Assembly (NCBI GenBank): GCA_964602895.1
Contig: CAZRTG010000001.1
Coordinates: forward strand, 494 to 64,493
Length of the DNA: 64,000 bases
Direction: 5' to 3'
Source of the DNA: an uncultured Wenzhouxiangellaceae bacterium
Lineage (GTDB): Bacteria; Pseudomonadota; Gammaproteobacteria; Xanthomonadales; SZUA-36
In this document: in pieces, positions 2,229 through 30,266 of the stretch
Layout: every line of letters starts with the position of its first letter
Numbering within the stretch: the stretch's first letter is position 1
Made by a program: the position numbers and the translations under genes
Notes under the pieces: model-generated
What the model was told of the DNA's origin: nothing
Database searches by the model: none
Seen by the model: only the letters and a program-made list of their open reading frames with translations

Positions 2229-2467
2229 ACCGGCCCCTTCTCTCAGCTTTCACCAAGATTCTGCCTTGACTGCCGCCCCAAGGCAACCAGCCCAACCGGT
2301 TTTCAATATAAGGTCGAACCCACGCTACTTATAGATTTGTTAGGCTGGACTTCCCAAGATATTGAAGACATTTCCAGCCTTTAAAAAATTACCAACAGTA
2401 TGGGTAACCTCGAATGACCTGCATTGGCTACTTGAGTGCTGGTCGCGCGCTCCCTGTTCCGCTTTGG

Positions 2468-4142: not shown

Positions 4143-4172
4143 GGTTCTGCAAAGCTCCGTATCTCCAGCACA

Positions 4173-4670: not shown

Positions 4671-4671
4671 A

Positions 4672-5979: not shown

Positions 5980-6055
5980 GCTTCTAACTCCCGAAAAATC
6001 ATCCTGCAGGTTCTGTTCAGCCGCAACCATGGCGGTAAACATTGCCTTCCGTCAT

Positions 6056-8055: not shown

Positions 8056-9179
8056 GTGTTTGCCCCTGCAAGTATGGCGGCTGCAGTACAGAGTCCGCGG
8101 TCAAAATTGATCATGCCAAAGCCGGAGACTGCTGCAATTCGGGCATCCGGCACCGCATTGTTGATGGCGGCCCCGGTGAGTTGCCGTATAGCCTCAACCA
8201 GGCCCAGGAATCCACCCGCTGCCCCAGCCTGGCCAACCGAAAGCTGCCCTCCGGAGGTGTTATGTGGAAAGCTGCCATCGAAGGTAAAACTGTTTTGCTG
8301 GATGAACTCGCTGGCACCGCCTTTTTCACAAAAACCCAGGTCTTCGAATTGCATCACACTGATAACCGGGTAATCATCGTAGGTCTGCAGCAGATCGACC
8401 TGTTCAGGCTGGATGTCGGCCATGCTCCAGAATTCGTCCCTGTCCAGTGCCCAGCCACCACGAAGCTGAATGGGGTCATCGGGGAATGCATTGTGGCGCT
8501 CAATCGTTGAAAGGATACGCACAAACGGCAGACCGCGGTCTTTGGCCACATCCTCGCGCATCACCAAAAAGCCTTCTGCTCCAGCGCAGGGCATGACACA
8601 GTCAAACAGGGTGATGGGGTCGGCAATACTGCGTGCGCCAAGGTACTGCTCTGTAGTCAGGCGCGACTTCATCAGGGCCGGCTCATAACACAGTGCATTT
8701 TCCCTCTGGGCCACACACAAACGCGCAAAATCTTCCCGTTGAGTGCCGTAAAGTCGCATATGCTCGCGTGTCATCAGGGCAAAACTGGCATTGGGGCCAC
8801 CAGCGCCATACGGGAAGGACGCATCCTGGGAAAATCGGCTGAAGCTCGCCAACATGGTCCGAAATGAATCCACATGGTTCGTATCTCCAGCCACACAGGC
8901 AACGATTTCAGCGTCACCGCTTTGCACCGCCCGTGCGGCGCGGCGCAGGGAAACAATACCGCTGGCTCCGCCCGTAGGAATATGATCCAACCAGCGTGTG
9001 GTCAGACCAAAATGCTGTGTAAGTCCGACTGCCGTGTCCGGAAACAGGGAAAACGAAGCTGCACAAAAACCATCAAAATCACCCGGAGTGAAGCCAGAAG
9101 CCTGAGCCAGGCCTGATAAAGCCCGTGCAATCCACCAGTGTGCCGGCTTTACCGAATAGCGCTCATAGGGAATACTCAC
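8052..9179 (-). CDS. thiolase-like protein, SCP-x / lipid-transfer type (usual partner of DUF35)
   Basis: 375 aa with thiolase-fold blocks (GGASGIVSLRRAARAVQSGDAEIVACVAGD, HNTSGGQLS). Start uncertain: the GTG is 17 nt from AAGGAG, and the in-frame upstream peptide GVVLTTP also looks thiolase-like. Confidence 0.75.
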   Translation of the reverse strand: MSIPYERYSVKPAHWWIARALSGLAQASGFTPGDFDGFCAASFSLFPDTAVGLTQHFGLTTRWLDHIPTGGASGIVSLRRAARAVQSGDAEIVACVAGDTNHVDSFRTMLASFSRFSQDASFPYGAGGPNASFALMTREHMRLYGTQREDFARLCVAQRENALCYEPALMKSRLTTEQYLGARSIADPITLFDCVMPCAGAEGFLVMREDVAKDRGLPFVRILSTIERHNAFPDDPIQLRGGWALDRDEFWSMADIQPEQVDLLQTYDDYPVISVMQFEDLGFCEKGGASEFIQQNSFTFDGSFPHNTSGGQLSVGQAGAAGGFLGLVEAIRQLTGAAINNAVPDARIAAVSGFGMINFDRGLCTAAAILAGANT

Positions 9180-9235
9180 GGGAGTGGTTAATACGACTCC
9201 TTCATAAGACTGGCGGCGATGGTGTGCAGGCTTGC

Positions 9236-10855
9236 TTATGATGGCGGTCTCTTTTTGAAACTTCTCAAATCCAGTACCTGCCCCAAATCCAGCTTTTCCC
9301 GTGCCAGTCGTTTTACTTCTGCACGGCTGACTTTCTGTGAGGCGGTCAAAGGCAAGTCGGCGACAAATTCGATATAGGCGGGAAGTTTAAAATAGCTCAA
9401 AAGCGCCATGGAGTGATCAAAAATCTCCCTGGCCAGCTTCGTATCCGGTTCAACATCGTCCGCCAGCACAACAAACGCAAACACCTCGTCACCGCGCATT
9501 TCATCGGGCACGGCGGTAACGGCACAGTTGCGCACAGCCGGGTGGCGCAGCAGTGCTGCTTCAACTTCGACAGCAGCAATGTTCTCACCGCTGCGCCGTA
9601 TCACATTTTTCTGCCGATCCACGAAAAACAAAGAGCCATCAGGCCCCTGCCGAACGATATCGCCGGTATGCCACCATCCACCGGCCCAACCCTGTTCGGT
9701 GGCTGAGCTGTCTTTGTAATACCCACTGAAAAAGCCCTTGCGTGGATGTGTGCCTTTGGCTCGCACCAACAACTCCCCATCAGCACCTTCCGGGACCTCA
9801 TTTCCATCGCTGTCGCTGATGCGCAACTGCATGGATGGAATCGGTTTGCCGATGCAGCGTTGCCCGACATGCCTGGGCTCCGAACGGGCAACTGTCATGG
9901 CTGCGCCGCCGGTTTCCGTCATGGCCCATGCTTCGATCAGGGGAAAGCCAAAGCGCTCTTCAAACACTTGCTGATGGCGGGGATCCGAGCCGGCGCCGAA
10001 GCCAAACTTCACCTGCTTGCTGAAATCATCGCTGTGCTGTGGCGGCAATGTTAGAAGAATGGCTGGCATGACTCCCAGATAGTGGATCACTGTGGCCCTC
10101 TCTTCACGAACGGTTTGCCACCAGGTTTTTGGATGAAAGCGATCCAGCTGAATCACACAGCCGCCACACATGAGCATCGCCATGAATGATGTAGCCAGTG
10201 CATTCATGTGATTCGGAGGCAGCGGTGTGAGCAAGCGATCACTGGAGTCGATAGCACATAAATCACCAAGCCGGTTGTATTCATGGCCCATGATGAGAAA
10301 GTATTCATTGGACAACATGCAGCCCTTGGGCTTGCCGGTGGTACCTGAGGTATACAGCAATGCAACTTCGGTGGAGTGGTCTCCCACGGGTTCAGCCAAT
10401 TCTCCATCACCCTGCAAATCGGCCGCTGAAATGAAGCGCAACGGTGCAGAACCAAAAGACGCATGTGCCAGTCGTGCAAGGTGCTCGTCGATACCGGTAA
10501 CCAGGCAACTGTCGCTGTGATCCAGAACGTAGTGCAGTTCCTGATCACTACCTCCCATATTCAACGGGACAATACTGACCCCCAGCGCGTTGAGGGCCAA
10601 TAAATGCAGATACACCTCAACCCGGCTGTCAAAAGCGAGCGCCACTCGCTGGCCACTACGAATTCCCTGAGCCTGGTAACCTTTCCGCAAATCATTCACT
10701 GCCGAAACCGCTGCCGCATAGGTATATTCAATCGCTTGCGGTGAATAGTTTTTTGTGGCCACAGCAGGCGCACGTAGAAAGGGCCTTTCACCGTGTGTTT
10801 CGGCCACTATCGAAAAGGCGGCAAATAGGGATGGTTGATGGATTAACTCAGTCAC
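9236..10855 (-). CDS. AMP-dependent acyl-CoA synthetase/ligase
   Basis: 539 aa. AMP-binding motif LLYTSGTTGKPKG, plus the GWWHTGD and RSGENI blocks. Confidence 0.9.
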   Translation of the reverse strand: MTELIHQPSLFAAFSIVAETHGERPFLRAPAVATKNYSPQAIEYTYAAAVSAVNDLRKGYQAQGIRSGQRVALAFDSRVEVYLHLLALNALGVSIVPLNMGGSDQELHYVLDHSDSCLVTGIDEHLARLAHASFGSAPLRFISAADLQGDGELAEPVGDHSTEVALLYTSGTTGKPKGCMLSNEYFLIMGHEYNRLGDLCAIDSSDRLLTPLPPNHMNALATSFMAMLMCGGCVIQLDRFHPKTWWQTVREERATVIHYLGVMPAILLTLPPQHSDDFSKQVKFGFGAGSDPRHQQVFEERFGFPLIEAWAMTETGGAAMTVARSEPRHVGQRCIGKPIPSMQLRISDSDGNEVPEGADGELLVRAKGTHPRKGFFSGYYKDSSATEQGWAGGWWHTGDIVRQGPDGSLFFVDRQKNVIRRSGENIAAVEVEAALLRHPAVRNCAVTAVPDEMRGDEVFAFVVLADDVEPDTKLAREIFDHSMALLSYFKLPAYIEFVADLPLTASQKVSRAEVKRLAREKLDLGQVLDLRSFKKRPPS

Positions 10856-14681: not shown

Positions 14682-15890
14682 ATGAAAATTACCGAAGTGA
14701 AAGTCATAGTAACCTGCCCTGATCGCAACTTTGTGACGGTGAAAATCCTTACTGACGAAGGCGTCCATGGTATAGGTGATGCAACCCTGAACGGCCGGGA
14801 ACTGGCGGTTGCAAGCTATCTGCAGGATCATATTGCTCCCTGTCTGATCGGTCGTGACCCACAGCAGAGCGAAGACATCTGGCAATACCTCTATCGTGGT
14901 GCTTACTGGCGTCGTGGTCCGGTCACCATGACAGCGATTGCAGGCATCGATACCGCTTTGTGGGATATCAAAGCCAAGATTGCCGGGTTGCCTCTGTACC
15001 AGTTGCTGGGGGGGCGTTCCCGCAACGGTGTTATGGTTTACGGCCACGCGAATGGTGACGACATATCTGAAACCTGCGACGAAGTGGCGCGGTATCGGGA
15101 GCTGGGTTACAAAGCCGTTCGGGCACAATGCGGCATACCGGGTCTGGACAGCACTTACGGGGTTTCCGAGGACAAAATGTTCTATGAGCCTGCTGATGGT
15201 GACATGCCTACTGAAAATACCTGGTCTACGGAACGCTACATCGATCATGTACCCAAACTGTTCGACAGGCTGCGTGAACAGTTCGGCTTTGACCTGCATC
15301 TGTTGCACGATGTGCATCACAGGCTAACCCCCATCGAGGCGGCCCGGGTCGGCAAATCGCTGGAAGAATATCGTTTGTTCTGGCTGGAAGATGCGGTTCC
15401 GGCTGAGAATCAGGAAGGTTTTCGGCTGATTCGTCAGCACACCGTGACACCCCTGGCCGTGGGCGAAGTATTCAACACCATCTGGGACAGTAAAACCCTG
15501 ATCGAAGAACAGTTGATTGACTATATCCGCAGCACCGTAGTGCATGCCGGCGGTATTACCCATCTACGCCGGATTGCCGACTTCGCGGCCCTGTACCACA
15601 TCAAGACCGGCTGTCATGGCGCGACGGATCTGTCACCGGTGTGTATGGGTGCGGCGCTGCATTTTGATACCTGGGTGCCCAACTTTGGCATTCAGGAATA
15701 CATGCGGCACACCGAGGCTACAGACGAGGTGTTCCCACACGACTACCGATTCGAAGACGGTTATTTGCTGGCTGGCGAAACACCTGGCCACGGAGTGGAT
15801 ATCGATGAATCCCTCGCAGCCAAATACCCTTACAAACGTGCCTACCTGCCGGTAAACCGGCTGCAGGATGGCACCATGTGGCATTGGTAA
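14682..15890 (+). CDS. enolase-superfamily dehydratase, D-mannonate dehydratase (ManD) subgroup
   Basis: [40 protein letters not shown]... and [11 protein letters not shown] are typical of the ManD subgroup. Start set at ATG 14682; the ORF-track start at 14601 lies in the promoter region. Confidence 0.82.
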
Positions 15891-15917: not shown

Positions 15918-17501
15918 ATGGCAGATTACGACGTAATTATTGCGGGTGGAGGTCACAACGGCCTGATTTGTGCAGCCGTACTGGTGGGTAGTGGCTTGAA
16001 TGTGCTGGTGCTTGAGCGTAATGACTGGGTGGGTGGCGGCGTACTGACCCGGGAACTGACCTTGCCGGGCTTCAAACATGACCCGTTCGGTTCTTCACAT
16101 GTCTGGATACATTTGAACCCCGCATTCAGGAAACTCAAACCAGAGTTGGAAAAGCATGGTTTGAAATATATCTGGTCTGACGACCACATCACCGGTCACC
16201 CCAACAAGTATGAAGGCCAGGGCATCATTGTCTACAAAGATGTCGATAAAACCTGCGACACCATAGCCGAGTATTCACGTGCAGATGCGCGTCGTTACCG
16301 CGAGATTTACGAAGAATTCGGCGATATCCAGGACGGTGTGGTGAAAGGCATGTTCGCACCACCCGCTCCGCCCAGCTACATGTACCAGGGTCTGGAACGC
16401 AACCCCGAAGGCCTCAGTCGTTTGCGTGATTACCAGCTCAGTTCACGGCAATTTACGCTGGAGAACTTCGAGAACGATCACGTACGCGCCTTCATCCTGG
16501 GTTGGGCCATGGCACCACAAACCTTGCCCGATCAACTGGGAACGGCAGCAGGGTTCTATGTGATGATCCCCAGCATTCACTATTTTGGCCAATCCATACC
16601 CGAAGGCGGCAGCGGCATGCTGGCAGTTGCCATGCAGCGCTACATCGAGGCCAATGGCGGTACCGTACGCACCGGAGCAACGGTCAGCAGCTTTATTGCT
16701 GAAGGCGGTGTTTGTAAGGGCGTCAGGCTGGAAACCGGTGAAGAAATTCTGGCCGGTAAAGCCGTGGTCAGTGGGTTGGACCCATACCAGACCTATTTGA
16801 AGGGTTTCAAGGATAATGAACTGCCAGCCGGTTTCAAGGATATGGTGCGCAAGTTCAAATTTGGCGATATCACCATTGCCCGGGTGCACTATGCACTGCA
16901 TGAAGCACCGGACTTCAAAGCCGGCGCTGACATGAACAAAACGGCATTTCAGCGGATTTTCGGTACCGTGGCGGATATCGACAAACAGTATCTGGAAATT
17001 GCAGCGCAACAGAAGCCGACCGATCCGTTCCTGTGGACCGCTGCCTGGACCACCATGGATCCGACCCGTGCGCCGGACGGCAAACATACACTCATCATGG
17101 ATACCTTTGTGCCGGTAGACCTGGCCAGTGGCGAAGACTGGGAAGCCATCGGACCCGCCTACTGCCGTGATGTGCTGCTGAAACAGTTACAGAATTACAC
17201 TACCAATATGACCGCCGATAACATCATGGCAGAGTATGTAGAAACCGGACCCAGTCTGGAACGTGCCAACAAATGCTTCCATCGTGGCGTCACCACGGGC
17301 GGCGAACGCACTTTGGCTCAGATGGGTGCCTTCCGACCGTTTCCGAATTATTCAGACTACCGCGGACCATTGAAGAAGCTGTACATGACCGGCCCTTCCT
17401 GCCACCCCGGTGGCGGCATTTGTGGCATGGGTACCATTACTGCAGATGAAATTCTGCTTGACCTCGGCGTTCGTGAAGAAGACGACGATTTTGATTTTTA
17501 G
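15918..17501 (+). CDS. FAD-dependent oxidoreductase, phytoene-desaturase/amine-oxidase (CrtI-like) family (paralogue 1 of 3)
   Basis: Dinucleotide fold DVIIAGGGHNGL. Blocks PGFKHD, DVDKTC, PPSY and GPSCHPGGGI are shared with the ORFs at 37756 and 44645. GGAGG lies 10 nt upstream of ATG 15918. Confidence 0.82.
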   Translation: MADYDVIIAGGGHNGLICAAVLVGSGLNVLVLERNDWVGGGVLTRELTLPGFKHDPFGSSHVWIHLNPAFRKLKPELEKHGLKYIWSDDHITGHPNKYEGQGIIVYKDVDKTCDTIAEYSRADARRYREIYEEFGDIQDGVVKGMFAPPAPPSYMYQGLERNPEGLSRLRDYQLSSRQFTLENFENDHVRAFILGWAMAPQTLPDQLGTAAGFYVMIPSIHYFGQSIPEGGSGMLAVAMQRYIEANGGTVRTGATVSSFIAEGGVCKGVRLETGEEILAGKAVVSGLDPYQTYLKGFKDNELPAGFKDMVRKFKFGDITIARVHYALHEAPDFKAGADMNKTAFQRIFGTVADIDKQYLEIAAQQKPTDPFLWTAAWTTMDPTRAPDGKHTLIMDTFVPVDLASGEDWEAIGPAYCRDVLLKQLQNYTTNMTADNIMAEYVETGPSLERANKCFHRGVTTGGERTLAQMGAFRPFPNYSDYRGPLKKLYMTGPSCHPGGGICGMGTITADEILLDLGVREEDDDFDF

Positions 17502-17563
17502 CCAATTGCAATTTCAGCATGAGTTGATTTGGCCGAACCACACCTATTGATCAGGAAAAAGAT

Positions 17564-18718
17564 ATGAAACAAGCACGCATAGACCCGTATACCGCACTGA
17601 TTGTGCAACCTGAAGTTACTGTCGTAAGCGATCGCGAAGGGATCCAGAAAAACCTCGATCGCATCAAAAACCTGATCCACTTTGGTGTGGGCTATTTCTG
17701 GGAAGTGCCTGTACGCCTGGTGGTGCTGCCGGAATATTTCATGCAGGGCGTGGGAACACCTGGCAAGGGTGAAACCGGCATTGCAGACGCCATGAAGAAA
17801 GCCGTGACCATCCCCGGCCCGGAAATCGACCAACTGGGTGAAATCGCCCAGCAGTACGGCATGTATATCTGTGGCGGTGGCGTCATGGAAAAAGTACCTG
17901 AATTCCCGGATCGCTGGTTCAATACCAACTTCATCGTTGGCCCATCCGGCGACGTGGTGTTGAAATACCACAAGTGGCACATCCCGGCTTCCGTCGGCCT
18001 GGGTACCAGCCCACACGATATTTTTGACGAGTATTGCGAGAAACTGGGCGGCGACATCAAGGATCTTTTCCCGGTGATTGATACCGAGATTGGCAAATTG
18101 GGTACCATGACCTGCCATGATGGCTGCACACCGGAAGTATCCCGCGCACTGGGCTACAACGGTGCGGAAATCATCTGCCACCCGGGCGCCATTCAGGAAG
18201 TCGAAGGTGTAAGCGAACCCTGGGACTTCTGGATGTTCACCCGTCGTACCCGTGCCCATGACAACATGGCCTATCTGCTGGGTTCCAACTGGGGATCGGT
18301 GAACTACGACTACTATCCAAAGGCTTTTTGCCCTGGTCGTTCCTTCGCCATCGATTACACCGGCATGGTGATGCGCGAAGCACCTTATCCAGCAGAACAG
18401 GTCCTGGCTTGCACTATCGATATTGAAGCACTGCGCCAGTACCGCACACGCACCAACCACAATTGCTGGGTAGACATGCGTACCGAAGGTTTCCGGCAGA
18501 TGTATGAAAAGCCCATCTATCCGCCCAACCGATTCCCAAGTGGCAGCCCGCCCCAATCACTGACTGAGAAAATTACGATTTGCAAAGAGGTATTTGACGA
18601 CCTTTATGCCCGTGGGCAGTTCACGCCACCGGCTGGCTTTGCGCCCGAGGATATTTCCAAACTGTTGCAAAAGCGTATTGACTACGCTCACTCAACCGGC
18701 CGTTTACGCAAAAGCTGA
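17564..18718 (+). CDS. carbon-nitrogen hydrolase (nitrilase superfamily, amidase-like branch) (paralogue 1 of 2)
   Basis: Candidate Glu-Lys-Cys triad in VLPEYF, KYHKWH and GTMTCHDG. 384 aa with a C-terminal extension. Confidence 0.82.
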   Translation: MKQARIDPYTALIVQPEVTVVSDREGIQKNLDRIKNLIHFGVGYFWEVPVRLVVLPEYFMQGVGTPGKGETGIADAMKKAVTIPGPEIDQLGEIAQQYGMYICGGGVMEKVPEFPDRWFNTNFIVGPSGDVVLKYHKWHIPASVGLGTSPHDIFDEYCEKLGGDIKDLFPVIDTEIGKLGTMTCHDGCTPEVSRALGYNGAEIICHPGAIQEVEGVSEPWDFWMFTRRTRAHDNMAYLLGSNWGSVNYDYYPKAFCPGRSFAIDYTGMVMREAPYPAEQVLACTIDIEALRQYRTRTNHNCWVDMRTEGFRQMYEKPIYPPNRFPSGSPPQSLTEKITICKEVFDDLYARGQFTPPAGFAPEDISKLLQKRIDYAHSTGRLRKS

Positions 18719-18735
18719 ATGAACAGGAAAACGCC

Positions 18736-18993
18736 ATGAAGGTCAGAAGCAAACTCGCCGATATTGATTTTGTATTTGGCAGATTCGAATACAAAAAAGA
18801 TCACTTGATTGTGCATTCAGATCCTGACCAGGCCATGCAAAGCAAAGTCTACGTCAGCCCGGATGATGTTCTATCCGGGCTGGCAAAGGCACTGGTGAAT
18901 CCCATGGTGTGGGTCTATTTTCTGGGCTTTCCGTTTTTCCTGATTCGTTATCGCCGCCGTCACCGTGCCAAACAAAAAAATACCGGCCGATAG
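18736..18993 (+). CDS. conserved 85-aa tail-anchored small protein (paralogue 1 of 2)
   Basis: AGGAAA SD 6 nt upstream. Soluble N-terminal about 50 aa, then a hydrophobic FLGFPFF helix and a polybasic tail RYRRRHRAKQK. A paralogue sits at 36214..36471 in the same position after the second C-N hydrolase. Confidence 0.7.
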   Translation: MKVRSKLADIDFVFGRFEYKKDHLIVHSDPDQAMQSKVYVSPDDVLSGLAKALVNPMVWVYFLGFPFFLIRYRRRHRAKQKNTGR

Positions 18994-19209: not shown

Positions 19210-20853
19210 ATGAACAAAATAACCGGCGCCGATGCGATTGTTGAATCGCTAATCGCAAACGATGTAGAAACAGTATTCGGCCTGCCTGGCGGTCAACTGG
19301 ACCACTTATTCGATTCCATTTATCGTGCGGGTGACAAAATAAATTTGATCCACACTCGTCACGAGCAAGGCGCCGCATACATGGCCTTCGGCTATGCACA
19401 AAGCACGGGTAAACCGGGTGTTTATGCCGTGGTGCCCGGGCCTGGCTTGTTGAACTCAAGCGCTGCCCTGTGTACGGCCTGGGCCTGCAACTCGCCGGTC
19501 ATGGCACTGTGCGGCCAGGTGCACCTGGCAGGTATCGACAGCGGCTATGGCCACCTGCATGAAATTCCCGACCAACTCGGCATGATTCGCCATATCACCA
19601 AATGGGCAGAACGCATCAATCATCCTGCCGATACGCCAAAAATAATGCAGCAGGCGTTCAGCGAGCTTCAGTCCGGCCGGCCCAGACCGGTAGAAGTTGA
19701 AATGCCCATGGATGTCATGGGCGCAGAGGCCATGGTTGCAAGCACTGCAAAAGCTTCGCTTGATGCACCGCCGCCCATCGATCCGGATCAGATCAAAGCT
19801 GCAGTAGAAATTTTGCTTGCGGCCAAACGGCCCATGATTGTGATCGGCTCGGGCGCATTGGATGCAGGCAAAGAGTTACTCGCAATTGCCGAGCGTTTGC
19901 AAGCACCCGTAATGTCAAAGCGCAAAGGCAAAGGCGTTGTTTCTGACGAAAACTACCTCAGCCAAAACCTCGTGGCAGGCCACACTCTGTGGGGCCAGTG
20001 CGATGCCGTGCTGGCTGTAGGTACCCGCCTGAAGATGCCTTTGACCATGTGGGGCAAAGACGATGACCTGAAGCTGGTGAGAGTGGATATTGATCCGGTA
20101 GAACTCAATCGAATCTGCACAGCCGAAGTGGGCATAGTGGGAGACGCTGCTACGGTGCTGAACGCGTTGCTGAAAGAGCTGGAAAAAAGTGGCACAAAGC
20201 GAGCCAGCCGGGAGCAGGAACTGAGTGAGTTGAAAGCTACGACAGGTAAAACCATGCGCGAAAAGATCGGGCCGCAGATGGCCTATCTGGATGTTATTCG
20301 CACCGCCTTACCTCGGGATGGCTATTTTATTGATGAAGTTACTCAGGTAGGTTTTGCCTCATGGTCGGGCTTCCCGGTATATGAACCGCGGCATTTTATT
20401 TCGGCCTGTCAACAGGGCACTCTGGGTTACGGCTTCGCCACCGCATTGGGCGTGGCTGCAGCACATCCTGATAAAGCCGTCGTACAGGTCAGTGGCGATG
20501 GTGGTTTCATGTTTACCATGCAGGAGTTGTCAACCGCGGTTCACTATCAACTGAACCTGGTTACGATTATCTTCAATGACAACACCTTCACCAATGTGCA
20601 GCGCCAGCAGGATGAGTGGTTTGATGGACGTCGTATCTGCTCCGACCTGACCAATCCGGATTTTGTGAAAATGACAGAGAGTTTTGGTGCCAGCGCTTAT
20701 CGGGTCAATTCCCCCGCTGAACTGGCCAAAATTCTGCCTGCCGCATTCAACGAACAGGGGCCGACTATTATTGAAGTCAGTCTGACTGAAAGGATGCCAA
20801 CGCCATGGCAATTCATATTGATGGAGCAGAACCGGAAGTCGCTGTGTCCCTGA
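19210..20853 (+). CDS. thiamine-pyrophosphate-dependent enzyme (acetolactate-synthase/2-oxoacid-decarboxylase family) (paralogue 1)
   Basis: 547 aa. TPP-binding motif SGDGGFMF...IFNDNTF. N-terminal Pyr domain GADAIVESLIANDVETVFGLPGG. No ilvN/ilvH-type small subunit nearby. Confidence 0.88.
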   Translation: MNKITGADAIVESLIANDVETVFGLPGGQLDHLFDSIYRAGDKINLIHTRHEQGAAYMAFGYAQSTGKPGVYAVVPGPGLLNSSAALCTAWACNSPVMALCGQVHLAGIDSGYGHLHEIPDQLGMIRHITKWAERINHPADTPKIMQQAFSELQSGRPRPVEVEMPMDVMGAEAMVASTAKASLDAPPPIDPDQIKAAVEILLAAKRPMIVIGSGALDAGKELLAIAERLQAPVMSKRKGKGVVSDENYLSQNLVAGHTLWGQCDAVLAVGTRLKMPLTMWGKDDDLKLVRVDIDPVELNRICTAEVGIVGDAATVLNALLKELEKSGTKRASREQELSELKATTGKTMREKIGPQMAYLDVIRTALPRDGYFIDEVTQVGFASWSGFPVYEPRHFISACQQGTLGYGFATALGVAAAHPDKAVVQVSGDGGFMFTMQELSTAVHYQLNLVTIIFNDNTFTNVQRQQDEWFDGRRICSDLTNPDFVKMTESFGASAYRVNSPAELAKILPAAFNEQGPTIIEVSLTERMPTPWQFILMEQNRKSLCP

Positions 20854-20940: not shown

Positions 20941-22074
20941 ATGCCCTTGATCTCCGCCGATAATGTGTTCGCCATGGGTACCATCCTGTTCGGATTGGCG
21001 TACCTGGGTTTCTGGATCGACAAACATCCGATTGGGAAGAAAACCTCCGGGGTTGTTTGGGTACTGGTTGCCGGCATGATCCTGTCGAATTTCCAGATCA
21101 TCCCTTACCACTCCCCTGCCTACGACTTTGTTGGCAACTATATGGTTTCCCTGGCGATCCCGTTGTTATTGTTCAAGGCTGACCTGCGTAAAATCATCAA
21201 GGAAAGCGGCAAGGTCATGATCACGTTCCTGGTTGCCACTGCAGCTACAGTAATCGGTGCAGTGGCCGGGTTTTTCCTGATTGACCTCGGTGAAATAGGC
21301 GCTAAAGTTGCTGGCGTATATACCGGCGGCTATGTCGGTGGCGCAGTAAACTTCCTTGCTGTATCACAGGTTGTGGGCATGTCCGAAGCCGAGTTCACCA
21401 CAGCTATCAGTGCCAGCAGCTTCGTCAGCATTCTGGCCCTTATGATGCTGATTGCCATTCCATCCATTCGTTGGATAGTCAAATTCCTGCCGTTAGCCCG
21501 CACCGAATCTTTGACAGAACAAGAGAAACAGGCCCTGCAAGCAGAGAAGCGTCCAACGGTCCGCTTGCGTCATATTACCGGCGTTTTGACGCTCAGCTTC
21601 GGCATTTGTGCCATATCGGCTGCCATTGGTGATTTCACCGGACACCCGCAGTACAACATTCTTTACGTCACCATCCTCACCCTGGTGGTAGCCAATATGT
21701 TTCCGCAGGTCATGGCCAAACTCGAGGGTGAGTTCGAGCTGGGCATGATATTCATGTACCTGTTTTTTGCCATGGTGGGCTCCAGCACCAACTTCTCTGA
21801 TTTTGCGGGTGCCGCTTTTACTTTATTCCTCTACGGCATGTTGATCATTGTCATCCATATCACCATCGTACTTTTGGTGGCAAAACTGCTGAAAGTTGAC
21901 CTGGCAGAGGCGATCGTCGCATCGGGTGCCGCACTGGTGGGCCCTGCAGTTACCGCAGCCATCGCCATTTCCCAGGGCTGGAGGACACTGGTCACGCCAG
22001 CCATCATGGTGGGTATTTTTGGATATGTGATTGGTACGTTTATCGGTGTCGCAGTGACATCATTCCTGACCTGA
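20941..22074 (+). CDS. polytopic inner-membrane protein (DUF819-like)
   Basis: 377 aa with about 10-12 hydrophobic segments. The family assignment is from memory of the DUF819/YjcL pattern only. Confidence 0.55.
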   Translation: MPLISADNVFAMGTILFGLAYLGFWIDKHPIGKKTSGVVWVLVAGMILSNFQIIPYHSPAYDFVGNYMVSLAIPLLLFKADLRKIIKESGKVMITFLVATAATVIGAVAGFFLIDLGEIGAKVAGVYTGGYVGGAVNFLAVSQVVGMSEAEFTTAISASSFVSILALMMLIAIPSIRWIVKFLPLARTESLTEQEKQALQAEKRPTVRLRHITGVLTLSFGICAISAAIGDFTGHPQYNILYVTILTLVVANMFPQVMAKLEGEFELGMIFMYLFFAMVGSSTNFSDFAGAAFTLFLYGMLIIVIHITIVLLVAKLLKVDLAEAIVASGAALVGPAVTAAIAISQGWRTLVTPAIMVGIFGYVIGTFIGVAVTSFLT

Positions 22075-22126
22075 ATAGTCACTGTTTTCTTTATGCCTGT
22101 AATAATCTAACCGGGTGTTATCTTTT

Positions 22127-22900
22127 ATGAGTGAAACCAGGAAAGTTGCAATCGTTACCGGTGCCGGTTCTGGTATAGGTAAAGCCTGCGCAATCCGACT
22201 GTCTGAAGCGGGTATGCGCGTCGCCGTTACCGATATCAGATCAGCCTCAGCCGAAACCACTGCGCAGCAGATCATTCAGGCTGGCGGCCAGGCCCTGTAC
22301 TTCCGGCACGATGTAGCTGATGAGTCAGCCTCCCACAAACTGGTACAGGAGCTGATTGCCCAATGGGGCCGGGTCGACGTGCTGGTAGCCAATGCCGGAG
22401 TGCAAATAGCCGGCAGCCTGCTGGCCACGACCGAAAGTGACTGGGACAAAATCCTGGCGGTAAACCTGAAAGGCGTAGCCTATTGCTGCAAGGCGGTGAT
22501 TCCGGCGATGCAGCAACAGGGTTCCGGCTCTCTCGTCCTTGTTTCTTCCGTCAACGCGGTGGTTGGTTCCACCGGCATGGCCGTGTACGACATGAGCAAG
22601 GCAGGTGTGTTGGCGCTGATGCGCAACCTGGCCGTGGAGCACGGCTTGCAGGGTATTCGAGTCAATGCAGTCTCTCCGGGCAATACCCTGACCGAGTTCC
22701 ACCTGGACAAAATGATGGCGGAAGGCATCACGACGGAGCAGATAGAGGAAATGACCCAGGGCTATGGCTTGTTGGGCCGGGTTGCCCGTCCACAGGAAAT
22801 TGCCAATGCGGTGTGTTTTCTGGCGGGTGATCAGTCCTCTTTTATCACCGGACACAATTTAATCGTTGATGGCGGCTTTTCCATAACCGGCCGTAATTAG
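22127..22900 (+). CDS. short-chain dehydrogenase/reductase
   Basis: Contains VTGAGSGIGKA, ANAGV and YDMSKAG. ATG at 22127; the ORF-track GTG start is at 22115. Confidence 0.85.
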   Translation: MSETRKVAIVTGAGSGIGKACAIRLSEAGMRVAVTDIRSASAETTAQQIIQAGGQALYFRHDVADESASHKLVQELIAQWGRVDVLVANAGVQIAGSLLATTESDWDKILAVNLKGVAYCCKAVIPAMQQQGSGSLVLVSSVNAVVGSTGMAVYDMSKAGVLALMRNLAVEHGLQGIRVNAVSPGNTLTEFHLDKMMAEGITTEQIEEMTQGYGLLGRVARPQEIANAVCFLAGDQSSFITGHNLIVDGGFSITGRN

Positions 22901-22909
22901 GAATTCATA

Positions 22910-23911
22910 ATGGCTGAAAAGATCTGCTTGGGAATATTGGGTACCGGCAACATGGCGCGTGCTTTTGCCTTGGGTTTACAGCACGCGCCCGCGGTTGATC
23001 TGGTGGCTGTTGCGTCACGTACCAATGAATCCGCTGAAGCGTTTGCGGGCGAGTTCAATACAGTCCGATATTTTTCAGACTACCGGCAGCTGGCAGCGGA
23101 ACCGGATATCGATCTGATTTACATCGCAACACCGCATTCCTGCCATATGGAAAACAGCCTGATGTGCCTGGATGCCGGCAAGGCTGTGCTGTGTGAAAAG
23201 CCCTTTACGATCAATGCGGCGCAAGCCCGGGTCGTCATAGAAAGTGCCCGGGAGAAAGGCCTGTTTCTGATGGAGGCCATGTGGAGCCGCTACATTCCGG
23301 CCATGGTGAAGCTGCGTGAATTGTTGTCTCGGAAGGTCATCGGTGATGTACAAATCATGCTGGCTGGCGGTGCTTTCATGCCGCCTTTTGATCCGAATGC
23401 CTATTTGTTTCGACCGGACCTGGGTGGAGGTGTGCTGCTGGATGCAGGTGTGTATCTGGTTTCCATCGCGTCCATGGTGCTGGGAACACCCAACAGGATC
23501 CTCGCCACCGGTAGCCTGGGCCCGTCCGGTGTGGATGACCATGACGCCTTCATTCTGCAACATGACAACGGTGCCATTGCCTCCTGCTATGTGTCATTGC
23601 GAGCCAGTGCCTCCCCGGAAATCACCCTGTTGGGTGACCGCGGCAAGCTGCAGGTACATGCCCCCCTGTTCGCACCGCCCCGTTTGACGCTCAGTCTTTC
23701 TGGCAAAGCGGACGAGGTAATGGACTTTCCTTTTGCAGGTAATGGCTATCAGTTTGAGGCCCAGGAGGCCGCTGAATGCCTGCTGGCGGGTAGCCTTGAA
23801 AGCAGCATCATGCCGCTGGATGAGACCCTGACCGTCATGCAAACCATGGATGAAATTCGCCAACAATTTCATCTCAGATATCCCATGGAACTTCAGATGG
23901 GGAAAAATTGA
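22910..23911 (+). CDS. Gfo/Idh/MocA-family NAD(P)-dependent oxidoreductase
   Basis: N-terminal GILGTGNMARAF Rossmann motif and the EKP block (CEKPFT). Confidence 0.85.
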   Translation: MAEKICLGILGTGNMARAFALGLQHAPAVDLVAVASRTNESAEAFAGEFNTVRYFSDYRQLAAEPDIDLIYIATPHSCHMENSLMCLDAGKAVLCEKPFTINAAQARVVIESAREKGLFLMEAMWSRYIPAMVKLRELLSRKVIGDVQIMLAGGAFMPPFDPNAYLFRPDLGGGVLLDAGVYLVSIASMVLGTPNRILATGSLGPSGVDDHDAFILQHDNGAIASCYVSLRASASPEITLLGDRGKLQVHAPLFAPPRLTLSLSGKADEVMDFPFAGNGYQFEAQEAAECLLAGSLESSIMPLDETLTVMQTMDEIRQQFHLRYPMELQMGKN

Positions 23912-23924
23912 TGTGGAGAATTAA

Positions 23925-24800
23925 ATGGCTGTAGTAATCATCACCGGATCAAACAGCGGCTTTGGCTTTGAAGGAGCATTAGCATTTGCCCGCAACGGCG
24001 ACACGGTCTACGCCAGTATGCGCAATACCCATAAATCCGAGCCCCTGTTGACCGCGGCACAGGCTGAAGGCCTGACCCTTCACATCAAAACGCTGGATGT
24101 GACTCAACCGGACACTTTTCCGGCTTTTCTGCAGGAGATCGCAGATGAAGCAGGCCAAATCGATGTACTGGTCAACAATGCCGGCATGGTAATAGCCGGG
24201 GCGCTGGAAGATGTTCCTGAAGCCGATTTACGTACCGTAATGGAAACCAATTTTTTCGGCCCCCTGCTGTTGACCCGAGCGGTTTTGCCCATCATGCGCG
24301 AACAAGGCAAGGGCACGATCATCATGATGAGCTCACTTTCCGGAGTGGCGGGCTTGCCTGGCGATTTGCCTTATTCAGCCAGTAAATTTGCCCTCGAAGG
24401 TGCGACTGAATGCCTCCGCCATGAGGTGGATCGTTTTGGCATCAAAGTGGCTTTGGTTGAAGCCGGCATGTACTCCACCGGAATTTTTGACTCCGCCCTG
24501 GAAAACGATGCCGTACTGCCTGCTGATTATCCAAAGGATTCGCCCTATCGCCTGCTGGTCGAGAACAAATTGCAAAGCGTACGGCAAAGCCTTGGCAAAG
24601 CCTTCCACCCCCGCATTGTCGGTGACCTGTTTGTCGCCATCGCGCAGTCAGATGGCAGCCGGTTACGCTGGCAGGCTGATGAAGTGGCTACTCATGTGAT
24701 CGGGGCCATGTTGGGTCATGATGACAAAGGCCGTGATGAGTTCCTGCGCATGGCCTCCGGGACCGACTGGTGGAGCGAGGGCAAAGACCATGCGGAGTAG
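23925..24800 (+). CDS. short-chain dehydrogenase/reductase
   Basis: Contains ITGSNSGFG, NNAGM and YSASKFAL. Confidence 0.85.
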   Translation: MAVVIITGSNSGFGFEGALAFARNGDTVYASMRNTHKSEPLLTAAQAEGLTLHIKTLDVTQPDTFPAFLQEIADEAGQIDVLVNNAGMVIAGALEDVPEADLRTVMETNFFGPLLLTRAVLPIMREQGKGTIIMMSSLSGVAGLPGDLPYSASKFALEGATECLRHEVDRFGIKVALVEAGMYSTGIFDSALENDAVLPADYPKDSPYRLLVENKLQSVRQSLGKAFHPRIVGDLFVAIAQSDGSRLRWQADEVATHVIGAMLGHDDKGRDEFLRMASGTDWWSEGKDHAE

Positions 24801-25203
24801 ACTGGCTCACGTTTGCATCGAAACAGCCGATCTGGAAGCTACCGAAACATTTTATCGTGCCCTGGGCTTGCAGCGGCGTTTTGATTTCCACAATCAGCAC
24901 GGTGACCTGGTGGGCTTCTATCTGGCCTTCAGCAACAATACTTTTGTAGAGGTTATCAAAGTCAAAAAGCCCAGGCCGGAAGGAGCAGTCCGGCACTTTG
25001 CAATTGAAGTGGACAATGTTGACAGCTGGTTCGAACGGTTGAAGCAACAGGGTATCAATGCCACCGAAAAGGAATTTGCCGGTGATGACAACTGGATGAT
25101 TACCTGCACGGATCCGAACGGGATTTTTATCGAGCTGCAACAATACACTGACAAAAGCATGCAAAAGATCGGTGGCAGTTGCAAAGTCAACTACCTGCCC
25201 TGA
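24790..25203 (+). CDS. VOC/glyoxalase-family protein
   Basis: RLAHVCIETADLEATETFYRALGL is typical of glyoxalase/bleomycin-resistance folds. ATG 24790 overlaps the preceding stop. Confidence 0.78.
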   Translation: MRSRLAHVCIETADLEATETFYRALGLQRRFDFHNQHGDLVGFYLAFSNNTFVEVIKVKKPRPEGAVRHFAIEVDNVDSWFERLKQQGINATEKEFAGDDNWMITCTDPNGIFIELQQYTDKSMQKIGGSCKVNYLP

Positions 25204-26453
25204 AGCCCGGACCTCAACCATCCGGGCTGCCTGTGTCCAACACATTGGTCAACAAGAGTAGGCACAAGAGCAGCTTCAGATTGCTCGTGGTGCTTGCGGT
25301 AAGCAGTTCGCTGGCGCCTTTCTCCATGGACTTTTTCGCCCCTGCGATGCCAGACGCCACCCGCGACCTCGCAGCATCGGTGGACGCTGTCCAGTCCACC
25401 CTGTACGTGTTTCTCGTTGGCTATGCTCTTGCGCCATTCATCTGGGGCGCATTGGCAGATCGTATAGGCAGACGCAAAGTCATGCTGGCAGGGCTTGGCG
25501 TGTACATCATCGCCTCGCTGGGCTGCTTCCTGGCCACAGGCATAGCGGGGTTGGCTTTCATGCGGATGCTACAGGGCATAGGTGCAGCCTGCGGCGTTGT
25601 GCTCGCCCGTACAGTGCTCCGGGACATTCACGGCCCCGGCGGGGCAACCAAAGCCATCTCCAGTATGTACATGATCATGGTATGGATTCCCATTTCAGCA
25701 CCCGTTCTGGGAGGTTACCTGAGCTCACACCTTAACTGGAGAATCAGCTTTCTGATCATGGCCCTGCTGGCTCTGCTCACACTGATCGGCAGCCTGTTGT
25801 GGCAAACGGAAACCAAACCACTGCCCTCTGCAGCAAACTACTCACCATCAATGACAAAGAGCTGGATCTCCATACTTTCAAACAGCGTCTTTTTACGTCA
25901 TTCTCTGGCGAATACCTTTTGCCTTACCACCATGTTGTTGTTTCTGGCGAACTACAGTTTTCTGCTGGAAAAATATTACCAGCTTGGTGCCCGTGAAAGT
26001 GGCTACATACTGGCCACCTTCAACGCCAGCCTTTCCGCCGGTGTGTATCTTGCCCGGGTGGTGGTTACAGCTTTGGGTGTAGAAAAAAGCATTCAAACCG
26101 GGCTGGTTATGGCGTTCACCGGTTGGCTGGGTTTGGTCGGCGCCAATCTGGGGCCTCCATCGCCCGGTCTTTCTCTGATCGTGATTGCACTGGCTTGCCT
26201 GGGTACCGGTATGGTGATCAGCCTAACCATCGGACAGGCACTGGTACCGTTCAGCCACACCACGGGTACCGCATCAGCACTTTTTATCTGTCTGCAGTCG
26301 ATAGGTTCGGCACTTATCGCCTTCCTGGTCGGGCGCTATCTTGAGAGCACGTTGGTGTCCTTATCCATCATGTTGGCGTTTTGCTCGCTGTTGGCCTTGC
26401 TCAGCATATTATTGATTGGCAAGCCTCAAACCGTGTCACCAAAAATCCGCTAA
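25179..26453 (+). CDS. MFS transporter (Bcr/CflA-like drug:H+ antiporter type)
   Basis: 12-TM profile. GALADRIGRRKVM is MFS motif A. Start uncertain (ATG 25179 or GTG 25233). Confidence 0.82.
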   Translation: MQSQLPALKPGPQPSGLPVSNTLVNKSRHKSSFRLLVVLAVSSSLAPFSMDFFAPAMPDATRDLAASVDAVQSTLYVFLVGYALAPFIWGALADRIGRRKVMLAGLGVYIIASLGCFLATGIAGLAFMRMLQGIGAACGVVLARTVLRDIHGPGGATKAISSMYMIMVWIPISAPVLGGYLSSHLNWRISFLIMALLALLTLIGSLLWQTETKPLPSAANYSPSMTKSWISILSNSVFLRHSLANTFCLTTMLLFLANYSFLLEKYYQLGARESGYILATFNASLSAGVYLARVVVTALGVEKSIQTGLVMAFTGWLGLVGANLGPPSPGLSLIVIALACLGTGMVISLTIGQALVPFSHTTGTASALFICLQSIGSALIAFLVGRYLESTLVSLSIMLAFCSLLALLSILLIGKPQTVSPKIR

Positions 26454-26524
26454 TGTGAAGGATTAGAAAATATACATTGTGAACGCAATTCCGAGCAGGA
26501 AGACTGTTAAGCCATAAACCACTT

Positions 26525-26552
26525 TTGACATTGAAAATGGTTTAGGTATAAA
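26525..26552 (+). promoter_or_regulatory. sigma70-type promoter candidate for the TonB-dependent receptor (-35 TTGACA, 16-nt spacer, -10 TATAAA)
   Basis: The hexamers were read directly at 26525-26530 and 26547-26552. Confidence 0.55.
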
Positions 26553-26553
26553 C
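26540..26553. promoter_or_regulatory. palindromic operator-like motif GTTTAGGTATAAAC (copy 4 of 4), overlapping the -10 hexamer
   Basis: Read directly. Confidence 0.5.
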
Positions 26554-26679
26554 TTTAAATTGTGAAAGGTTGTGAATGACGGTGTTCAACCTGTTTTTGA
26601 ACAGCCTCTGAATCAACATTACAACAGACTCTGTTAAAGAGCCGCCAGTTCCAGTCAGCCCAACTCGGAGACCCACTCG

Positions 26680-30261: not shown

Positions 30262-30266
30262 AGATC

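Follow-up and report, generated by a model that had tools for sequence, protein, structure and literature searches.

The closest described relatives of the gene set considered here are the DavB/DavA and IaaM/IaaH systems, in which an amine-oxidase/GR2-fold flavoprotein is paired with an ammonia-releasing amidase. A second related arrangement is the arginine transaminase pathway of Pseudomonas aeruginosa (AruH-AruI-KauB-GbuA), which leads from an aminotransferase (AT) through an acetolactate synthase-like, thiamine diphosphate (ThDP)-dependent 2-oxo-acid decarboxylase and an aldehyde dehydrogenase (ALDH) to a C-N hydrolase. CrtI-family enzymes catalyze C-C desaturation, isomerization and ketolation of hydrophobic substrates. 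The same orthologous group, COG1233, includes catabolic, water-dependent C-H oxidizing dehydrogenases, represented by the O2-independent limonene dehydrogenase CtmAB (PMC4109377). Elements of these systems are brought together in a 64,000-nucleotide stretch of DNA from an uncultured Wenzhouxiangellaceae bacterium (GenBank assembly GCA_964602895.1, contig CAZRTG010000001.1, positions 494 to 64,493; hereafter the window), which carries two copies of a gene triad encoding a CrtI-like flavoprotein (FLAV), a nitrilase-superfamily amidase (HYD) and a small membrane-associated protein (SM). The enzyme superfamilies are well known; the novelty lies in how they are conserved together, in the sub-branch to which the amidase belongs, in the SM family, and in the setting of a CrtI-fold flavoprotein within hydrophilic catabolism. 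Neither the Dav nor the Iaa system has the small membrane protein, the ThDP decarboxylase and the mannonate branch that triad loci possess.

The triad occupies positions 15918-18993 on the plus strand (copy 1, FLAV1-HYD1-SM1) and 39315-36214 on the minus strand (copy 2, FLAV2-HYD2-SM2). The lists of open reading frames (ORFs) confirm this shared order, which was noticed in a first-pass annotation made from the DNA letters. The order is also kept well beyond this genome, as that annotation had anticipated: among 92 loci with adequate flanks, FLAV lies directly upstream of HYD and SM directly downstream in 83. A scan of a species-representative genome set provided 80 loci, the best of 172 relatives, and a metagenome scan seeded with HYD2 provided 38 further loci of the clade at 54-93 % identity. 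The triad is carried, among named taxa, by Halieaceae, Woeseiaceae, Microbulbifer, Pseudoteredinibacter, Parahaliea, Sphingopyxis and Hyphococcus/Amphiplicatus; cultured representatives are Parahaliea mediterranea TN14-10, Microbulbifer sp. TYP-18, Pseudoteredinibacter isoporae LMG 25246, Elongatibacter sediminis CH-27 and Sphingopyxis. The sources comprise marine sediment and water-column Gammaproteobacteria, Alphaproteobacteria, sponge-associated bacteria, and soil and groundwater metagenome contigs. In a series of metagenome-assembled genomes (MAGs; loci L056-L077), several of them labelled sponge or coral, the triad stands alone amid housekeeping genes and is followed by a PhyH-family dioxygenase gene; the triad is therefore regarded as a self-sufficient functional core. 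Source databases name its products 'phytoene dehydrogenase-like', 'predicted amidohydrolase' or 'hypothetical'. Full-text literature searches found no publication that describes the triad or its operon, in keeping with the initial remark that the combination was not recognized as a characterized pathway.

The explanation that fits best, with a probability of roughly 0.4, is that the triad forms the invariant core of a widespread, uncharacterized catabolic operon, in which a membrane-associated dehydrogenase and an amidase work in direct succession on a single nitrogen-containing substrate. FLAV would dehydrogenate a C-H group adjoining a nitrogen or carbonyl of the substrate and would deliver the electrons to a membrane acceptor, probably a quinone, with SM holding the enzyme or enzymes at the membrane. 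HYD would then cut an amide C-N bond created or exposed by FLAV, releasing ammonia or an amine together with a carboxylate, although the two steps may run in the opposite order. The products would enter two branches. One consists of a HisC-like AT, a ThDP-dependent 2-oxo-acid decarboxylase and an ALDH, where the AT would provide a parallel or subsequent entry; the other, found in most free-living lineages, would proceed from a D-mannonate dehydratase (ManD or UxuA) to 2-keto-3-deoxygluconate (KDG) kinase and 2-keto-3-deoxy-6-phosphogluconate (KDPG) aldolase. A dehydrogenase role with a membrane acceptor would fit the CrtI-family relatives and the limonene dehydrogenase precedent (PMC4109377). 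The uptake genes vary across loci (TonB-dependent receptor, DUF819, MFS, NSS or amino-acid-type ATP-binding cassette (ABC) transporter), and the regulators at related loci are of the GntR/FCD (34 loci) or LysR type. With these transporters and regulators the context is catabolic, and no carotenoid genes lie nearby. The general idea of a catabolic, ammonia-releasing function, suggested from the start, is supported.

The proteins of the two copies are paralogous. BLASTP aligns FLAV1 with FLAV2 at 55 % identity over 518 residues, HYD1 with HYD2 at 67 % over 380 residues, and SM1 with SM2 at 36 % over 87 residues (E 3e-15), so the likeness reported for the small proteins holds as well. The alignments contain all of the identical runs quoted in the first-pass annotation, namely FPDRWFNT, LKYHKWH, DTEIGKLGTMTCHDG, YYPKAFCPG, EKPIYPPN and FTPPAG in the amidases and GGGHN, PGFKHD, DVDKTC, PPSY and SCHPGGGI in the flavoproteins. 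The similarity between the copies greatly exceeds chance. The triad DNA is just 67-72 % identical, counted over its alignable parts only, and the duplication is therefore old and not a recent repeat or an assembly artefact. An all-against-all BLAST comparison detected further paralogous pairs shared by both copies: the HisC-family AT (48 % identity), the ThDP enzyme (50 %), the ALDH (53 %) and a short-chain dehydrogenase/reductase (SDR; 38 %). The unit that was duplicated is larger than first described, as it takes in the AT, ThDP enzyme, ALDH and SDR genes, and copy 2 carries a third flavoprotein gene. The window holds two complete modules of ancient divergence with different uptake systems, a DUF819 transporter inside copy 1 and an amino-acid-type ABC transporter in copy 2. 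This difference is consistent with two related substrates, the interpretation offered originally for the presence of two copies.

FLAV1 (527 residues; 15918-17501, plus strand), FLAV2 (39315-37756, minus strand) and a third paralogue, FLAV3 (46207-44645, minus strand), which is 55-58 % identical to the other two, match the Pfam family Amino_oxidase (PF01593), whose cutoff is 19.8 bits, with 47.9 (FLAV1), 51.4 and 59.5 bits. The N-terminal motif GGGHNGL (residues 10-16) corresponds to a dinucleotide-binding site for flavin adenine dinucleotide (FAD). The NCBIfam models of CrtO, CrtI and CrtD are matched over the full length by all three proteins, with scores well under the cutoffs: 243-281 bits (243 for FLAV1) versus 1000 for the CrtO ketolase (NF045689), and 76.6-105.3 bits versus 238.1 for the phytoene desaturase family crtI_fam (TIGR02734). 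Judged by Pfam and NCBIfam, by which FLAV is a CrtI/CrtO-like member of Amino_oxidase and HYD a CN_hydrolase, the initial assignment of FLAV as CrtI/amine-oxidase-like and of HYD as a nitrilase-superfamily C-N hydrolase was right. The AlphaFold2 model of FLAV1 (pLDDT 84, pTM 0.87) was compared with the Protein Data Bank (PDB) using Foldseek. The top fold match is a carotenoid desaturase (4rep; E 6.5e-28, TM scores 0.76/0.82), followed by CrtI (4dgk), while the amine oxidizers NicA2, putrescine oxidase and monoamine oxidase constitute a second tier with TM scores of 0.55-0.60. FLAV is a cytoplasmic FAD protein, and the model confirms a CrtI/CrtD fold.

The fold and the full-length homology that FLAV shares with CrtO, CrtI/CrtD and CtmAB raise the question of whether FLAV is simply a carotenoid or isoprenoid ketolase or desaturase that adjoins HYD without a shared function. 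The best NCBIfam match (CrtO) and the best fold match (a carotenoid desaturase) agree with such an assignment. However, the CrtO score reaches a quarter of its cutoff and the crtI_fam score also falls short, Pfam and NCBIfam annotation of the window detected no crtB, crtY or crtE, and FLAV is strictly syntenic with genes for an amidase, transporters and catabolic enzymes in 83 of 92 loci. Moreover, the FLAV homologue of Deinococcus deserti, which resides in a true carotenoid context, sits among crt genes without HYD or SM. The carotenoid assignment is therefore extremely improbable. CrtO, CrtI, CrtD and CtmAB act on hydrophobic isoprenoids, whereas the context of FLAV is that of hydrophilic nitrogen-compound and sugar-acid catabolism, and FLAV differs from them further in its conserved acidic C-terminal tail and its small partner protein.

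The match to Amino_oxidase is also what may be expected of the chemistry that the first-pass annotation had proposed by analogy, in which FLAV is a decarboxylating amino-acid 2-monooxygenase of the DavB/IaaM type that forms an amide, and HYD, like DavA or IaaH, converts the amide to an acid and ammonia. DavA is a nitrilase-superfamily amidase, copy 2 is associated with an amino-acid-type ABC importer, and the Dav pathway likewise continues with an aminotransferase and an aldehyde dehydrogenase, all of which speak for this chemistry. Nonetheless, the closest sequence and fold relatives of FLAV are CrtI and CrtD, placing it in the CrtI/CrtD (COG1233) branch and not in the L-amino-acid-oxidase branch, and the amine oxidases appear just in the second structural tier. 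Solved structures of the amino-acid 2-monooxygenase type exist in the PDB, and no amino-acid 2-monooxygenase or L-amino-acid oxidase is present among the PDB sequence matches of FLAV with E ≤ 1e-3 or among the top 50 Foldseek matches. An oxidative-decarboxylation route would also be redundant, because the AT, ThDP decarboxylase and ALDH of the same operon yield the same acid. In addition, the linkage to ManD/UxuA, KdgK and Eda is left unexplained, and the membrane anchor suggests a dehydrogenase over an O2-dependent monooxygenase. The DavB/DavA and IaaM/IaaH chemistry is thus considered quite unlikely.

Two further observations concern relatives of FLAV. On a plasmid of Rhizobium sp. SL42 (L156, 6001-10645), two tandem FLAV-like oxidoreductase genes are followed by a gene for a GcvT-like protein of the aminomethyltransferase family. 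Such an arrangement typically accompanies amine oxidation with N-demethylation and hints that parts of the flavoprotein clade oxidize C-N bonds. Some FLAV orthologues are named 'PYROXD2-like' in the source databases. A putative, unverified sequence of human PYROXD2 aligns with FLAV over the full length at 26 % identity, which serves as a lead only and not as evidence; the human protein is distant, and animals are not known to have a HYD or SM partner. PYROXD2 is an orphan mitochondrial flavoprotein with no assigned reaction, and it is tied genetically to dimethylamine, trimethylamine and N-methylated derivatives of lysine (PMC8777681, PMC13352909).

HYD1 (384 residues; 17564-18718, plus strand) and HYD2 (37697-36540, minus strand; 385 residues as called in public assemblies) match the Pfam family CN_hydrolase (PF00795) with 109.4 and 108.3 bits, respectively, against a cutoff of 23.2. 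The named families are matched with much lower scores than their cutoffs require: 73-77 bits (upper value 76.7) versus 406 for the formamidase equivalog, which is the best for HYD, 63 versus 410 for the N-carbamoylputrescine amidase AguB, and 29.7-45 versus 427 for the aliphatic amidase. The closest PDB sequences are those of formamidases (5g3o and 2dyu, E 1e-19 to 1e-15). Residues E57 (in PEYF), K137 (KYHKW) and C184 (TCHDG) align with the catalytic Glu, Lys and Cys of formamidase 5g3o, and the three motifs occur in 71, 67 and 71 of 71 orthologues, respectively, as well as in diverged members of the clade. The Glu-Lys-Cys triad, the absence of which would have spoken against the first-pass assignment, is therefore present in the alignment. 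HYD contains an insertion of about 20 residues beyond the catalytic Lys and a C-terminal extension. The latter is typical of oligomeric amidases and is a feature shared with AmiF and AmiE of nitrilase branch 2, the best PDB and NCBIfam relatives. HYD is distinguished from these by scores of 73-77 bits against cutoffs above 400 and by an S/T-P-H-D motif apparently in place of E-P-W; its size of 384 residues, its insertion and extension and its proximity to formamidase also set it apart from the amidase of the Dav system. The S/T-P-H-D motif (HYD1 residues 146-152, 17999-18019) is invariant across the HYD family and lies inside a longer loop. In the HMMER alignment, S149-P150-H151 stand opposite the second catalytic Glu (E-P-W) of AmiF, in a loop with an insertion where the alignment is uncertain. 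By these sequence criteria, HYD is a predicted Cys-Lys-Glu amidase that represents a new branch of the nitrilase superfamily, outside all named amidase families.

Distant HYD homologues with 30-36 % identity occur on plasmids of Tsukamurella, Paracoccus aminophilus, Streptomyces, haloarchaea and Flammeovirga, without FLAV and SM. Several of those with 30-35 % identity (Tsukamurella, haloarchaea and Flammeovirga) have lost the catalytic Cys. A transfer of function from these proteins was rejected.

SM1 (85 residues; 18736-18993, plus strand) and SM2 (36471-36214, minus strand; 99 bits against the SM profile) matched no family in Pfam or NCBIfam. Clustering at 90 % identity gives 403 groups of SM homologues, each of about 80-95 residues and unannotated; at 50 % identity there are only about 90 clusters among 1.84 billion representative proteins. 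The family consensus is MKVxSKLADIDFxFGxFEYKKDHLIxHS...KVYVSPDD...NPMVWxYxLGFPFFLxRYRRR. The AlphaFold2 model consists of a low-confidence N-terminal β-hairpin region and two helices, residues 42-54 and 56-83, with a pLDDT of 64 for the N-terminal half. The Kyte-Doolittle hydropathy over a 19-residue window reaches 1.79 at residues 52-70 of SM1, which constitute the hydrophobic helix, and the hydrophobic segment is followed by a polybasic tail of 15-25 residues with a net charge of +6 to +8. In two remote relatives the SM module forms the N-terminus of a large polytopic membrane protein, which supports a real membrane segment in SM. SM is thus a small membrane-associated protein of a new family. 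The first-pass description of SM as tail-anchored is nonetheless doubtful, since by the positive-inside rule the positively charged tail is expected to be cytoplasmic. Going by the charge pattern, an N-out/C-in or in-plane arrangement would be at least as likely.

A conserved acidic-aromatic tail, EDDDFDF (17481-17501 in FLAV1), terminates FLAV in about 70 of 72 orthologues and is absent from FLAV2. The last 12 residues of FLAV1-type proteins have a mean net charge of -5.2, and the SM tail (18946-18993 in SM1) one of +6.6; with their opposite charges, FLAV and SM may dock to each other electrostatically through these tails. Small proteins of similar architecture also accompany more distant flavoproteins. 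R. rhizogenes K84, N. aromaticivorans (pNL2) and B. anthina have plasmid-borne FLAV homologues of about 33 % identity (L153 8001-9855, L154 8001-9820 and L155 7983-9784). In each case a gene for a protein of 73-85 residues comes next, with a 4-nucleotide overlap or a 13-nucleotide gap, and the K84 and N. aromaticivorans pairs sit in clusters resembling aromatic ring-cleavage pathways. Profile-profile comparison of these SM-like proteins with the SM family by hhalign resulted in a probability of 67 % and an E value of 5e-5, and the SM profile scores them at 5-12 bits, the same range as random ORFs. That they are ancestral partners of the flavoprotein clade is suggestive, not proven.

One module that recurs at triad loci encodes the AT/ThDP/ALDH branch. 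Of the 48 loci flanked by 8 kb or more on either side, 33 have the ThDP enzyme, 30 the AT and 23 the ALDH, usually directly after SM. In the window, TPP1 (19210-20853, plus strand) and its paralogue TPP2 (47991-46219, minus strand, the real start perhaps lying downstream of the ORF start) pass the cutoff of the unnamed subfamily PRK08266 (758 and 734 bits versus 571). The next-best family, the 5-guanidino-2-oxopentanoate decarboxylase AruI (NF005712), is matched with 380.8 and 386.7 bits versus a cutoff of 500. AT1 (14403-13276, minus strand) belongs to the HisC family (TIGR01141, 284 bits versus 277) and has the putative phenylalanine aminotransferase 4r2n as its best PDB match; its paralogue AT2 lies at 43542-42445 (minus strand). 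ALDH1 (13109-11601, minus strand) and ALDH2 (36217-34730, minus strand) resemble KauB and the aminobutyraldehyde and betaine-aldehyde dehydrogenases, their best named relatives being phenylacetaldehyde dehydrogenases, and ALDH1 has a StyD-like score that is under the cutoff. Together, the AT, ThDP decarboxylase and ALDH convert an amino acid to the acid one carbon shorter.

This sequence of enzymes invites comparison with the arginine transaminase pathway. In a variant acting on an ω-N-acyl or ureido amino acid such as citrulline, homocitrulline, N-acetyl-ornithine or N-acetyl-lysine, the AT, ThDP decarboxylase and ALDH would produce an ω-(acylamino) acid, HYD would strip the acyl or carbamoyl group, and FLAV would oxidize the freed amine to an aldehyde. 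AruI as the second-best NCBIfam family of the ThDP enzyme (381-387 bits), the KauB-like ALDH, the matches of HYD to N-carbamoylputrescine amidase, β-ureidopropionase and D-carbamoylase (E 1e-9 to 1e-17), the appearance of putrescine oxidase and NicA2 in the second structural tier of FLAV, and the Lys/Arg/Orn-family binding protein of copy 2 are all in agreement with such a variant. However, the AruI score is under its cutoff and that of PRK08266 is passed instead, and the mannonate dehydratase, KDG kinase and sugar dehydrogenases of the operons find no explanation. Nor does the inseparability of FLAV and HYD if both act last, and the triad of loci L056-L077 occurs without AT, ThDP enzyme or ALDH. 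The variant is unlikely on balance. Relative to the P. aeruginosa pathway, the C-N hydrolase here is a nitrilase-superfamily amidase and not a ureohydrolase, the AT is of the HisC type, and there are in addition a sugar-acid branch and a flavoprotein resembling CrtI.

The ThDP decarboxylase requires a 2-oxo acid, which only FLAV or the AT could supply. This opens the way to a convergence on a 2-oxo acid as in mandelate degradation: HYD would hydrolyze a 2-hydroxy- or 2-amino-carboxamide, FLAV would oxidize the resulting acid to the 2-oxo acid, the AT would admit an L-amino acid, and the ThDP decarboxylase and ALDH would complete the route, in correspondence to MdlY/MdlB/MdlC/MdlD with an enolase- or LarA-type racemase/dehydratase alongside. 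The order FLAV-HYD-SM-TPP-AT-ALDH is common, the best named relatives of the ALDH are phenylacetaldehyde dehydrogenases, and an enolase-superfamily gene is positioned directly 5' of FLAV in many loci. At one locus (L121), HYD and FLAV, in that order, are followed by a gene for a LarA-like 2-hydroxy-acid racemase directly 3' of FLAV. Nonetheless, the enolase-superfamily gene encodes a genuine dehydratase, ManD (about E-215 to 2qjj), and not a racemase, KdgK and Eda indicate sugar acids and not aryl acids, and we know of no CrtI-family 2-hydroxy-acid dehydrogenase. A mandelate-like route is consequently improbable. The DavB/DavA, arginine-variant and mandelate-like explanations each cover just part of the gene set.

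The remaining part is the mannonate/KDG branch. The window enolase-superfamily gene (14682-15890, plus strand), which ends 27 nucleotides before FLAV1, encodes a protein that scores 758.2 bits with the ManD model NF043051 (equivalog cutoff 550) and aligns with PDB entry 2qjj over residues 1-402 with an E value of 2.6e-215; by sequence it is assigned as a genuine D-mannonate dehydratase. ManD is present in 22 of the 80 genome loci and is directly upstream of FLAV in 17 of these 22. UxuA, a mannonate dehydratase non-homologous to ManD, occurs in 9 other loci, the two never appear together, and one or the other is present in 23 of 35 large loci of the free-living type. This non-orthologous displacement is strong evidence that D-mannonate dehydration is part of the pathway. 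KDG kinase (KdgK) and KDPG aldolase (Eda) are frequent at related loci and are encoded in the window at 2468-4142. In Sphingopyxis, FLAV, HYD, SM and a PfkB gene form one operon, from which ManD and an MFS transporter gene diverge, and ALDH-AT-TPP is close by; a soil contig (L113) has TPP-AT-ALDH-ManD-FLAV-HYD-SM-SDR-GFO on a single strand. The last gene of copy 2 encodes an FAH-family protein (33056-31866, minus strand) that aligns with PDB entry 9kkt (E 6e-123) and with KdaD (2q18, E 1e-15), and its resemblance to 2-keto-3-deoxy-pentonate dehydratases again suggests 2-keto-3-deoxy sugar-acid chemistry. ManD, KdgK and Eda are also the genes of the lower hexuronate/mannonate pathway. In known hexuronate operons, however, they accompany UxaC and UxuB and not a flavoprotein-amidase pair or an AT/ThDP decarboxylase set.

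The linkage to ManD, KDG kinase and KDPG aldolase makes a plain amino acid less fitting as the substrate. With products entering two operon-encoded branches, a sugar-acid amide or amine derivative or a polyhydroxylated amino compound is likelier than a standard amino acid. The class that best fits all parts would be N-linked derivatives of sugar acids or of polyhydroxylated amino compounds, which may include aldonamides, uronamides, amino-sugar acids, sugar-amino-acid conjugates and cyclic iminosugars oxidized to lactams. A more specific proposal, of low probability, is that the triad is a membrane-tethered oxidize-then-hydrolyze system for stable C-N linkages. Water-dependent oxidation by FLAV beside the nitrogen would yield a lactam or aldonamide, the amidase would open this product, the sugar part would continue to D-mannonate and KDG, and the amino part would enter the AT/ThDP/ALDH branch. 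Iminosugars and other cyclic amines, glycosylamines, and conjugates of the sugar-amine or opine-like kind may then be candidate substrates. If true, the strategy would be new among catabolic ones and comparable to the oxidative cleavage of C-glycosides; a reaction type would be available for the first time for the PYROXD2-like COG1233 branch, and SM-like proteins would be defined as its dedicated membrane partner. More speculatively, bromotyrosine-derived arylacetamides, hydroxyproline/5-oxoproline, aminouronic acids, mannityl opines and iminosugars were considered, each of which covers just part of the gene set. The TonB receptor, KdgK and Eda also brought the oxidative chitin (GlcNAc1A, Ong) pathway into consideration. 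It was rejected as the identity of the triad, because OngB is described as an amidohydrolase-superfamily deacetylase and not a nitrilase-superfamily enzyme.

Several points weigh against a dehydrogenase and an amidase acting back to back in such a pathway. To our knowledge, no CrtI-family enzyme acts on hydrophilic nitrogen compounds. In HYD the S/T-P-H-D motif apparently stands in for the second catalytic Glu, so that the chemistry may depart from that of textbook amidases. The order of the FLAV and HYD reactions was assigned from chemical reasoning alone. About one third of the free-living-type loci, and also copy 2 in the window, have no mannonate dehydratase within 10 kb, so that the sugar-acid link may hold for some substrates only, and the stand-alone triads of L056-L077 lack both downstream branches. 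SM2 is weakly hydrophobic (Kyte-Doolittle value 1.36), and SM is absent from a few loci, L004 (the cultured Elongatibacter sediminis), L098 and L121, and is therefore not strictly essential.

Solving the function of the triad would identify a nitrogen- and carbon-yielding substrate of abundant heterotrophs, define a new functional branch of the nitrilase superfamily and assign a role to a new family of small membrane proteins. It would also reveal, for the first time in a clade of CrtI-fold flavoproteins, a function on a hydrophilic substrate that is not an isoprenoid; this clade is distantly related, as a lead only, to the orphan human disease and metabolite quantitative trait locus gene PYROXD2. 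If the triad instead belongs to an ordinary amidase pathway for a known compound, the annotation of hundreds of genomes would be improved.

Copy 1 is arranged with ALDH1 and AT1 divergent from the series ManD-FLAV1-HYD1-SM1-TPP1-DUF819-SDR-GFO-SDR, with 62 nucleotides between FLAV1 and HYD1 and 17 between HYD1 and SM1. The downstream plus-strand genes encode the DUF819 transporter (20941-22074), for which no substrate was found in the literature on DUF819, a glucose-1-dehydrogenase-like SDR (22115-22900), a GFO/IDH/MocA oxidoreductase (22910-23911) and a second SDR (23925-24800), and related loci repeatedly contain these same transporter, SDR and GFO families. The DNA just downstream (25179-28974) encodes an MFS transporter and a TonB-dependent receptor. 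Copy 2 comprises 14 close-set or overlapping minus-strand genes (47991-31866). TPP2 and FLAV3 are followed by a polar-amino-acid-type ABC binding protein of the Lys/Arg/Orn family (44618-43596), AT2, a glutathione S-transferase (42448-41801) and two permeases (41784-40624 and 40614-39523), and then by FLAV2, HYD2, SM2, ALDH2, an SDR (34733-33870), an ABC ATPase (33840-33070) and the FAH-family protein. The SM2 stop and the ALDH2 start overlap by 4 nucleotides, and a LysR/GcvA-type regulator gene (48172-49107, plus strand) is divergent from the operon. FLAV3 adjoins TPP2 without a HYD or SM gene of its own alongside; it might partner FLAV2, as two COG1233 subunits do in limonene dehydrogenase. 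An Rfam scan of the whole window detected no riboswitch or other RNA that could identify a ligand, and promoter and terminator scans of the window gave counts not above those of shuffled sequence.

The loci that depart from the common order do so in different ways. The SM-HYD pair is kept in L119, L120, L122 and L123, and FLAV is missing from the first three of these. In L066, FLAV is present and not directly beside HYD. HYD follows ManD and precedes a pyridoxal phosphate-dependent decarboxylase gene in L100, and in L125 it is accompanied by a different flavoprotein and a TctABC transporter. An NSS-family sodium symporter gene recurs near the triad operon in some marine lineages (L078, 4511-5881). 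A 334-residue 4Fe-4S protein that resembles reductive dehalogenases (TIGR02486, 114 bits, under the cutoff) is encoded in L045 (15881-16885) and in 11 other Halieaceae-type loci. Near-identical triads occur in MAGs labelled Nitrosopumilus, Klebsiella pneumoniae, Enterobacteriaceae or Planctomycetota (L011, L048, L059 and L079), and a 'PYROXD2-like' protein (P0399) that is 76 % identical to FLAV1 is labelled as a fish protein. Such odd taxon labels are probably binning or contamination errors in public records.

The remainder of the window contains other gene clusters. Minus-strand genes at 235-10855 encode a kynureninase-like protein (235-1467), the PfkB kinase and KDPG/KHG aldolase at 2468-4142, a Rieske ring-hydroxylating oxygenase α subunit (4672-6042), an acyl-CoA (coenzyme A) ligase (9236-10855), and SDRs, ChsH2-like and thiolase-like proteins; the kinase and aldolase fit the KDG link, and the remainder resembles a separate CoA-dependent catabolic cluster. 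At 29191-31793 (plus strand), the gene for an unusually long, 356-residue 'cyclase' family protein overlaps the start of a galactarate/altronate-dehydratase-family gene, the pair being convergent with the copy-2 operon. A 679-residue amidase-signature protein is encoded at 50543-52582 (minus strand). The plus-strand genes at 52797-59384 look like a Wadjet (JetABCD-type) anti-plasmid defence locus, comprising a DUF3375 (JetA-like) protein, a 200-residue ORF, a 1124-residue SbcC/SMC-like ATPase, and a protein with DUF3322 and JetD_C domains.

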